Shown: piece after piece, positions 43,349 through 45,132 of the stretch | How the letters are laid out: the number at the start of each line of letters is the position of its first letter | How positions within the stretch are numbered: position 1 is the stretch's first letter | Sequence record: PV018827 | Direction: 5' to 3' (one strand) | Source of the DNA: Escherichia phage KM01 | DNA: 64,000 bases | The notes under the pieces: generated by a model | The model's input: the letters and a program-made list of their open reading frames with translations, nothing else | What the model was told of the DNA's origin: nothing | Database searches by the model: none | Made by a program: the position numbers and the translations under genes

Positions 43349-44092
43349 TCATTTATCTTGTTCCTTTTCCATAGCTTTAACAATAGCTTTACAGAAACCA
43401 GAACGAACAATGTCATCCGATTCGCCGTCTACAATCTCAGCGAACTCATACAGATCATGTTCATCAATAAAGTTAGTAGCCCAAGTAAGACCACTCTCAC
43501 GACCACGCATATCATGCTGGTTAGTATCACCCATGCAGAACAGCTGAGAGGTTTCTCCCAATCGAGTCATGATCGAGAAGGCTTCATCTTTAGTGGTGTT
43601 CTGGAATTCATCAACAATAACAATAGCATCATTGAAAGAACGACCACGGAGATATTCCAGAGGTACGAACTCAATGTTACTGTTACCGAGCTGGCATTCA
43701 TAGAACCCCTTACCATATCGCTGAGTAATAACATCAATGATGGGCATCAGGTAAGGTTCAAACTTCTCACGCATTCCTCCAGGAAGTAACCCAAGAGAGT
43801 TGCCCATGCCAACTGAAGGTCGACTCAGAATGATCTTCTGAATCTTACCACTTTTCAGTGCATCGATAACCGTGGAAGTGATTACAAAGGTCTTACCACA
43901 GCCCGCAGGAGCGTCTGTGAACACAACTTGTTTAGTCTTAATAGCATTGAGTAGCTCAGACTGAAACTGGTTCTGAGGGACTACAGGCTTTGCTAAAACC
44001 ACCTCTTCATACTCTCGCTTACCCTTACGAGTAACAAGTGCTTCCCGACGAAGGTCTTTCCGTGATTCTTTCCGTGATTGACGACGACTCAT
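43349..44092 (-). CDS. phoH: PhoH-like ATPase
   Basis: Walker A DAPAGCGKT and PhoH signature PLEYLRGRSFNDAIVIVDEFQN. Confidence 0.8.
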   Translation of the reverse strand: MSRRQSRKESRKDLRREALVTRKGKREYEEVVLAKPVVPQNQFQSELLNAIKTKQVVFTDAPAGCGKTFVITSTVIDALKSGKIQKIILSRPSVGMGNSLGLLPGGMREKFEPYLMPIIDVITQRYGKGFYECQLGNSNIEFVPLEYLRGRSFNDAIVIVDEFQNTTKDEAFSIMTRLGETSQLFCMGDTNQHDMRGRESGLTWATNFIDEHDLYEFAEIVDGESDDIVRSGFCKAIVKAMEKEQDK

Positions 44093-44274
44093 TTACGCTC
44101 TCCAATTTCTTCGTAATGACACTCAGTAGTTAAACAGTCTTTACAGATTGCTGTATAAACCCTGACGTTAGTAAATCGTTTGTTCTTCCCTTTGGTTGGA
44201 GAGCCTTTGGCAAGCTCTCTGATAATCTTGTTACTTAAATGAAGGTTTGTTCCTTCACATTTAGAGCACTTCAT
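44089..44274 (-). CDS. Small zinc-ribbon protein
   Basis: CSKC...CKDC four-Cys arrangement; 61 aa. Confidence 0.35.
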   Translation of the reverse strand: MKCSKCEGTNLHLSNKIIRELAKGSPTKGKNKRFTNVRVYTAICKDCLTTECHYEEIGERK

Positions 44275-44590
44275 GGTTCATATCTTTATGAATCCTGTAA
44301 ACAGCTGTCGCCATACAAGCAACAGCCTCATTGTGTGGGAGATGCATTCCTGTAGAACCATCCCAATCTTTGAACTCATTGTCAAAGACTCCGGTAGGCT
44401 CTGGATACAGAGCTTGCAGCTCCACTAGATCATTAGCAACTTGTTGCCATTTATCATCAGACCAGATAGGGTCATCCAACCAGTAATACAAATAGGAATG
44501 GATGATCAATTGCCTTCTATGCCGATTGATTACTTCAGCGGGACTTATTTCACTTCCATTTGAAGTCCTAAATGTATTACTGTCAATCAT
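44261..44590 (-). CDS. Stand-alone NAD-dependent-ligase Ia-like domain protein
   Basis: HSYLYYWLDDPIWSDDKWQQVANDLVELQALYPE resembles the LigA N-terminal Ia domain. Confidence 0.35.
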   Translation of the reverse strand: MIDSNTFRTSNGSEISPAEVINRHRRQLIIHSYLYYWLDDPIWSDDKWQQVANDLVELQALYPEPTGVFDNEFKDWDGSTGMHLPHNEAVACMATAVYRIHKDMNHEVL

Positions 44591-44835
44591 TTCACAACCT
44601 TAAATTTGAATGTTGTTGGGTGATAATAATGCAATCTATTGATAGTGTGTTTTGTTTCAAGATATATCCTGCAAGAGTGGCACATGACATGGGTCAGACC
44701 AGTTACAGGATTAGGTTTAAAGTTGGCGACAGTCTTCTCTTTATTACAGAAGCTACAGACTTTCTTTTCCATCTTTTCTCCAGTGGTCAACGAATTGCTG
44801 AAACACTTTACGATCAAATGTGAAATTACGAGCAA
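44587..44835 (-). CDS. Small zinc-ribbon protein
   Basis: CSFC...CHSC pairs; 82 aa. Confidence 0.3.
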   Translation of the reverse strand: MLVISHLIVKCFSNSLTTGEKMEKKVCSFCNKEKTVANFKPNPVTGLTHVMCHSCRIYLETKHTINRLHYYHPTTFKFKVVK

Positions 44836-45132
44836 TTCCGCATTCTCTAAAAGTGGCAGGCATATAATCTACATCACCTTCAGATGTATGACCATAGACT
44901 TGAATAAGCTTCTTAATCTTATCTTTCTCTCTTCGAGGAAGCATTCTAAATGCCTCCTGAATATCTGTAATATGTTTTATCTTCATAAGGAATTCCTGCT
45001 AATCCTCTGAGTTGTGGGAACAGCAATATTCACATACTCCGCAACATGGACAAATTTCTACACTTGGGTCATATGCATCATCAACTGTCATCCCACACTT
45101 GGTGCAGAACACATCGTCATCTTCTTCCAACA

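Follow-up and report, generated by a model that had tools for sequence, protein, structure and literature searches.

A stand-alone Nlig-Ia domain protein and small predicted zinc-binding proteins in the ThyX–PhoH interval of a Kuravirus

The ThyX–PhoH interval

The window, by which the whole stretch of 64,000 nucleotides analysed is meant, matches Escherichia phage EK5, a Kuravirus (phiEco32/SU10-like), with 100% identity. On its minus strand the genes for the flavin-dependent thymidylate synthase ThyX (45383..46039; Pfam Thy1, E = 1.8e-43) and for a PhoH-like ATPase (43349..44092; Pfam PhoH, E = 4.3e-56) are separated by six tightly packed genes, all of them likewise on the minus strand and all under purifying selection. 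In the direction of transcription these are p82 (45133..45381; 82 aa, hypothetical protein, SU10 gp063), Cys44 (44999..45133; 44 aa, acidic, with 8 Cys, SU10 gp062), p77 (44753..44986; 77 aa, basic, SU10 gp061), ZnB (44587..44772; 61 aa, predicted to bind zinc, SU10 gp060, phi32_63 in phiEco32), a stand-alone Nlig-Ia protein (44261..44590; 109 aa, SU10 gp059, phi32_62), and ZnA (44089..44274; a 61-aa zinc ribbon with a predicted metal site, SU10 gp058, phi32_61). The dN/dS values of the five ORFs within 44089-45130, the interval with which an earlier note on this DNA was concerned, range from 0.03 to 0.38.

The genes are closely interlocked: the stop codon of ZnB overlaps the start codon of Nlig-Ia (ATGA), ZnA overlaps the 3' end of Nlig-Ia by 14 nt, and the stop codon of ZnA overlaps the start codon of PhoH, again as ATGA, which suggests translational coupling. 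Together with Dps, thioredoxin, ThyX and PhoH they share a middle-class operon outside the early region (PMC4281155; promoter motifs). The probable promoter of this operon lies upstream of the homologue of SU10 CDS68 (47505..47548, minus strand) and consists of a sigma70-like site and a near-match to the gp36 motif TAATGTATA; an exact copy of TAATGTATA downstream of PhoH (42968..42976, minus strand) shows where the following middle transcription unit begins. In SU10, promoters have been placed upstream of CDS68 and between CDS56 and CDS57 (PMC4281155).

The ThyX–PhoH interval is a hot spot for the insertion of unrelated small genes, with ThyX as its upstream and PhoH as its downstream boundary. 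p82, which lies just beyond the interval of the earlier note, is a variable member found in only some Kuraviruses (dN/dS 0.3-0.5); it has no Pfam or PHROG match, and its counterpart gp063 was termed unique in the SU10 paper (PMC4281155). The gene for p77 lies inside the interval and is missing from the earlier note. Its product, which is without a Cys motif, matches phrog_4452 (E = 1.5e-31), a PHROG labelled "anti-restriction nuclease"; this function is putative, and neither Pfam nor PDB lends it support. Relatives with about 30% identity are found in T4-like Klebsiella phages, and p77 is absent from phiEco32, ECBP2 and Bas88 (dN/dS 0.09-0.23). To call the small genes an array, as the earlier note did, overstates the case, since they are unrelated genes in an insertion hot spot.

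The 109-aa protein is a solo Nlig-Ia

The resemblance of the 109-aa protein to domain Ia of the NAD+-dependent DNA ligase LigA, first noticed from a short segment of its sequence, is borne out by profile and structure comparisons. The protein matches Pfam PF22745 (Nlig-Ia) with E = 2.1e-35 and 121.7 bits (cut-off 27) over model positions 1-90 of 92, and phrog_6466 with E = 2e-43; its alignment with residues 2-54 of E. coli LigA by hhalign has a probability of 95.7%, and its two-helix hairpin superposes on domain Ia of LigA with 0.6 A over 47 columns. It is thus almost certainly a solo Nlig-Ia, homologous to the domain of LigA that binds NMN and NAD+. No other domain was found in it by Pfam search, neither PF01653, the nucleotidyltransferase domain, nor any other ligase domain, and the label "DNA ligase" under which the protein is found in databases is therefore a misannotation.

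The family is large, with 1117 representative clusters (at 50% identity) of the same small size, and the phages that carry it infect hosts from at least three bacterial phyla, among them Proteobacteria, Firmicutes and Actinobacteria. The longer members (P0182, P0205, P0238 and others) gave no match to a second Pfam domain. The dN/dS of 0.06-0.16 for the protein in the window indicates strong purifying selection. Solo Nlig-Ia proteins have been described before: a comparative study reports them in 81 phages and predicts that they bind NAD+, as an NAD+ sensor or shield (Iyer, Burroughs, Anantharaman and Aravind, 2022; Viruses 14:1977, PMC9503650). The example given there, ECBP2_0056, is from the same subfamily, Gordonclarkvirinae (PMC9503650), and is a 77%-identical orthologue of the protein discussed here. 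Both the family and its predicted NAD+ binding are thus already published, and literature searches for experiments on solo Nlig-Ia found only this comparative paper.

Predicted ligand pocket and C-terminal half

The pocket was compared over 324 distinct relatives of Nlig-Ia. Y35, Y36 and D45, the counterparts of Tyr22, His23 and Asp32 of LigA, are present in 100% of them, and W48, the counterpart of Tyr35, is present in 93% and otherwise replaced by F or Y, so that this position is always aromatic. Tyr in place of E. coli His23 is no peculiarity of the phage proteins, since it is the consensus of LigA itself at this position. Q49, the counterpart of Asp36, is Q in 83% and D in 11% of the relatives. 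Of the five residues that contact NMN in LigA (Y22, H23, D32, Y35 and D36) four therefore fit, the Asp36 counterpart being systematically changed, and the aromatic sandwich (Y35/W48) and D45, which in LigA hold the NMN moiety, are kept. Judged from these residues, Nlig-Ia may be expected, with somewhat better than even confidence, to bind NMN, either free or as the NMN end of NAD+. It should be noted, however, that Asp36 is one of five LigA residues essential for the reaction with NAD+, so that with Gln in its place the ligand could differ from NMN/NAD+.

The C-terminal half is near-invariant (F73, W76, G78, T80, G81, H83, L84, P85 and the last helix). This half (F..DWDGSTGMHLP plus helix) is specific to the solo family and missing from LigA: E. 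coli LigA covers only positions 2-52 of the 92 in PF22745, whereas the phage protein covers 1-90. A catalytic role of H83 is unlikely, since this residue is replaced in about 15% of the members.

That many records annotate the protein as "DNA ligase" could be taken to mean that it is the functionless remnant of a phage ligA and that the Cys-rich ORFs beside it arose by chance or are remnants too, for example of the zinc finger of LigA. LigA does contain a Cys4 zinc finger, and the spacing C-x2-C-G-x14-C in Cys44 is superficially like it. None of the Cys-rich proteins, however, matches this finger (PF03119, DNA_ligase_ZBD) at E <= 10, and no ligase fragments are found elsewhere in the genome. 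The low dN/dS of Nlig-Ia, the more than a thousand clusters of constant small size and the conserved, family-specific C-terminal half are not what a decaying gene would leave. The probability of this reading is negligible, and the conservation data refute it.

Small Cys-rich proteins

The earlier note had pointed to consecutive small ORFs with paired CxxC motifs. They are indeed present on the minus strand: apart from ZnA, ZnB and Cys44 no small ORF on this strand of the 64-kb window has at least two CxxC, and such a pair is above chance (a random 61-mer with the Cys frequency of the window would contain two or more with a probability of about 1e-4). The four putative ligand Cys of ZnA and of ZnB are kept in orthologues that are only 39-59% identical. 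With their conserved CxxC knuckles the three proteins fit, as predicted zinc binders, the class of zinc ribbons and zinc fingers. They show no similarity to each other in all-against-all blastp, and none of them matches a Pfam family above threshold.

In ZnA the Cys pattern is C3xxC6...C44xxC47, together with a conserved basic loop, RELAKGSPTKGKNK. Both the Cys and the loop are kept in ECBP2, IME267 and Bas88 (57-59% identity) and in Salmonella phage SE131 (39%); dN/dS is 0.08-0.38. A homologue, gp076, is present in 7-11, a phage without Nlig-Ia, and in two groups, the subfamily Gordonclarkvirinae and the family Grimontviridae, ZnA accompanies PhoH, ThyX and thioredoxin. In view of the conserved basic loop, ZnA is most likely a nucleic-acid-binding accessory of this PhoH/ThyX/thioredoxin module, a prediction from sequence.

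For ZnB the earlier note gave an ORF of 44587-44835. The Cys-rich ORF is real, but its start has to be moved to the ATG at 44772, which is preceded by a GGAG ribosome-binding site and yields 61 aa (MEKKVCSFC...); the orthologues begin at this ATG, which rules out the TTG at 44835. The Cys pattern C6xxC9...C31xxC34 is kept at 56-58% identity, with dN/dS of 0.03-0.11. An AF2 model (pLDDT 73.5) consists of a beta-hairpin and a helix, for which a fold search with Foldseek gave no match (best E 1.4). Among 5.8e9 proteins the homologues of ZnA and ZnB are Kuravirus-like sequences only, amounting to 2 clusters for ZnA and only 3 for ZnB, too few for a deep alignment.

An unlisted ORF of about 45 aa had been suspected near 45012-45130. 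It exists and is annotated as SU10 gp062, although with the coordinates 44999-45133 and 44 aa; this is Cys44. Its Cys pattern is C10xxC13, C28xCCxxCxxCC, all 8 Cys are kept (dN/dS 0.10), and homologues are found in Kuravirus records only, at 84% identity or more. Two database labels do not hold. For "NAD+ diphosphatase" (NudC) there is no NUDIX or zf-NADH-PPase match at E <= 10, only generic Zn_Ribbon_1/3 matches below threshold. "Membrane protein" (phrog_16989) goes back to a match limited to positions 2-38 of a 122-position profile, and a hydrophobic segment is missing from the acidic, Cys-rich sequence of Cys44.

Binding to large complexes is common among small zinc ribbons, and it has been proposed in the earlier note that the small Cys-rich proteins, and perhaps also Nlig-Ia, are host-takeover factors such as RNA polymerase (RNAP) binders. 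ZnB weakly resembles the Elf1 zinc ribbon (E = 0.006) and the restriction-alleviation protein Lar (E = 0.002), in both cases below threshold, and phiEco32-like phages do encode gp79, a small RNAP-binding middle-gene product and alike in size, timing and phage group (PMC12276001). By locus and published description, however, gp79 is set apart: it is encoded elsewhere in phiEco32, not among phi32_61-63, and has been described as a helical protein without mention of a zinc ribbon (PMC12276001). The Pfam matches all remain below the gathering score, as is typical of chance matches of CxxC pairs; for example, ZnB reaches only 18.9 bits with Lar (PF14354; cut-off 28.6) and can be rejected as a member of that family. 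Neither family nor fold thus supports a takeover function of ZnB, the genes lie in an operon for replication and nucleotide metabolism outside the early region (PMC4281155), and the company that ZnA keeps in Gordonclarkvirinae and Grimontviridae is PhoH, ThyX and thioredoxin. The proposal is without support and must be considered very unlikely.

The Cys-rich proteins are not regular companions of Nlig-Ia either. When same-strand ORFs next to Nlig-Ia were inspected outside the Kuravirus lineage, Cys-rich ORFs were found in 0/29 cases within one gene and in 4/67 versus 9/375 within two genes (p = 0.12), which is no enrichment and leaves zinc ribbons as conserved partners unsupported. The Cys-rich ORFs are separate small predicted zinc-binding proteins, none of which is required to explain Nlig-Ia.

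Genomic neighbours of Nlig-Ia

Pfam classification of 123 neighbours, drawn from 26 independent Nlig-Ia lineages, yielded DNA_pol_A (4), DnaB_C (2), PhoH (2) and PDDEXK (2) and also gp32, RNaseH/5'-3' exonuclease and dUTPase; no ligase or NAD-metabolism family was among the top 25. For example, Nlig-Ia sits between RecA and DnaX in Dp-1, just after PolI in Arthrobacter phage Lizalica and between PolIII genes in Clostridium phage phiCTP1. The neighbours of Nlig-Ia are replication and recombination genes rather than genes of NAD metabolism. This link is in part trivial because most of the recognisable non-structural genes of phages are replication genes.

Rhodococcus phages of the ReqiPepy6 type encode Nlig-Ia as the N-terminal part of a fusion with an SF2 helicase. 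This fusion, the overlapping stop and start codons of ZnB, Nlig-Ia, ZnA and PhoH in Kuraviruses, and the presence of PhoH within 6 kb of Nlig-Ia in 4/27 clusters (0.8-1.4 kb downstream in two unrelated lineages) and on one further metagenomic contig could indicate that Nlig-Ia is a regulatory subunit through which an NTPase that processes DNA or RNA, PhoH in Kuraviruses and the fused helicase in Rhodococcus phages, is made responsive to the nicotinamide-nucleotide status. But the fusion is limited to about 9-10 records of one phage group, the helicase is widespread without Nlig-Ia, and where it is free its upstream genes are others, so that the two do not form a general pair. Co-occurrence with PhoH (15%) is not clearly above expectation, and 7-11 and SE131 have PhoH without Nlig-Ia. 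A regulatory subunit of this kind is therefore distinctly improbable.

Absence of a DNA ligase

For SU10 no ligase is annotated, neither its complete genome nor the window gave a match to an ATP-ligase HMM or to residues 70-671 of E. coli LigA, and the large ORFs of unassigned product gave no ligase match. Nor is a split ligase found beside the solo domain, the nucleotidyltransferase (NTase) part of LigA as probe having no match within +-6 kb in 27 clusters. Kuraviruses thus encode no detectable ligase and would use that of the host. Iyer et al. (2022; PMC9503650) report no ligase for 80 of the 81 phages with solo Nlig-Ia. The Grimontviridae relatives, among those listed, all have a 368-aa ATP-dependent ligase. 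In the whole genome of one such sister phage, 7-11, Nlig-Ia was not found (best E 1.4), and this genome encodes an ATP-dependent ligase, Sir2, NAMPT and PRPP synthase. The pattern is complementary, SU10 having Nlig-Ia without ligase and 7-11 ligase and NAD-salvage genes without Nlig-Ia, and it rests on the whole genomes of one clade pair.

This pattern brings to mind that the solo domain may dock on the NTase domain of host LigA, where it would replace or join the Ia of the enzyme itself and either stimulate adenylylation for phage replication or bring LigA to the replisome of the phage, with the invariant C-terminal motif as the LigA-binding surface. Besides the complementarity, the replication genes next to Nlig-Ia, among them genes for Okazaki-fragment processing, would agree with docking, as would a C-terminal motif that is near-invariant across three host phyla and fits a universal target such as the NTase domain. 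On the other hand, LigA already has a tethered Ia, so that the gain from a copy in trans is not evident; a small-molecule ligand accounts equally well for the universal conservation; and an inhibitory version would be self-defeating, since the phage needs the host ligase. Docking on LigA is unlikely. Unlikely, too, is the more inclusive view that Nlig-Ia is an accessory factor that would keep host LigA charged during replication of a ligase-less phage by means of its NMN pocket and its invariant C-terminal surface: it could take away inhibitory NMN, pass NAD+ on to LigA, or dock on the nucleotidyltransferase domain of this enzyme. As such it would be a functional alternative to the ATP-dependent ligase and the NAD+-salvage genes of the sister phages.

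Proposed role of Nlig-Ia

LigA requires only low, micromolar concentrations of NAD+ (Km), and its adenylylation is reversed by NMN. We propose that Nlig-Ia is a non-catalytic module binding nicotinamide nucleotides, made as a middle gene product together with enzymes of replication and nucleotide metabolism in phages of the Kuravirus type, which, without NAD+-salvage genes, would rely on the NAD+-dependent LigA of the host for joining Okazaki fragments. The most parsimonious activity would be to buffer or sequester NAD+/NMN, either by shielding NAD+ from NADases or by removing NMN. Alternatively, Nlig-Ia could report the nucleotide status to a partner via its conserved C-terminal surface. The low Km of LigA weakens the case for ligation being the first process to fail as NAD+ falls, and a solo domain without an obvious output needs a partner if it is to be a sensor. 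As a whole, the mechanism of a stand-alone nicotinamide-nucleotide-binding module in the NAD+/LigA economy of replication is put forward tentatively, its chances being somewhat below even.

What can be said already is that Nlig-Ia is a widespread phage family that is routinely mislabelled "DNA ligase"; for annotation it is of practical use that Kuraviruses encode no detectable ligase and would depend on that of the host. If buffering of NAD+/NMN or assistance of LigA were true, Nlig-Ia would represent a novel way for a virus to manipulate both an essential enzyme of its host and the NAD+ economy, a target of many defence systems. The protein would then also provide a minimal module of natural origin for binding NAD+/NMN and as such a possible sensor scaffold; an engineered LigA-based NAD+ sensor (PDB 8JYD) is among its structural matches. 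The zinc mini-proteins are of little significance at present.

Comparison with known systems

The zinc mini-proteins, 44-61 aa long, resemble Lar (PF14354) and the Zn_ribbon families in having two CxxC pairs that are conserved, but they are below the thresholds of these families and their homologues are restricted to Kuravirus-like phages.

With domain Ia of LigA (PDB 5TT5, 1TAE, 1TA8, 3JSL) Nlig-Ia has the motif H-x3-Y-Y ... D-x2-aromatic in common, and the residues that stack on NMN and hydrogen-bond to it are kept. It differs in that Gln takes the place of Asp36 and in that about 45 extra residues form an invariant W-x-G-S/T-T-G-x-H-L-P loop and a helix. Since no nucleotidyltransferase domain is joined to the phage protein, it cannot adenylylate anything, and its identity of only 28% with E. 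coli Ia shows that it was not captured recently from the host.

From the solo Nlig-Ia of Iyer et al. (2022) there is no essential difference: the family, the solo arrangement, the phages without ligase and the predicted NAD+ binding are the same. Relative to the passages on Nlig-Ia and ligase in that paper, what is added here is the C-terminal half that is missing from LigA, the replication-gene neighbours across lineages, the complementarity of SU10 and 7-11 with respect to ATP-dependent ligase and NAD-salvage genes, and the helicase fusion.

Finally, Nlig-Ia may share with the rebuilding of NAD+ by NARP1/2/3 and with Tad1/Tad2 the outcome that NAD+-dependent processes are protected, and, if it is a sponge, it would bind its nucleotide stoichiometrically as do the Tad and Acb sponges. 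It is, however, without homology to the NARP and Tad countermeasures and without an enzymatic domain; its predicted ligand carries nicotinamide, whereas the ADPR-derived signals do not; and it is encoded in replication modules, not in anti-defence islands.

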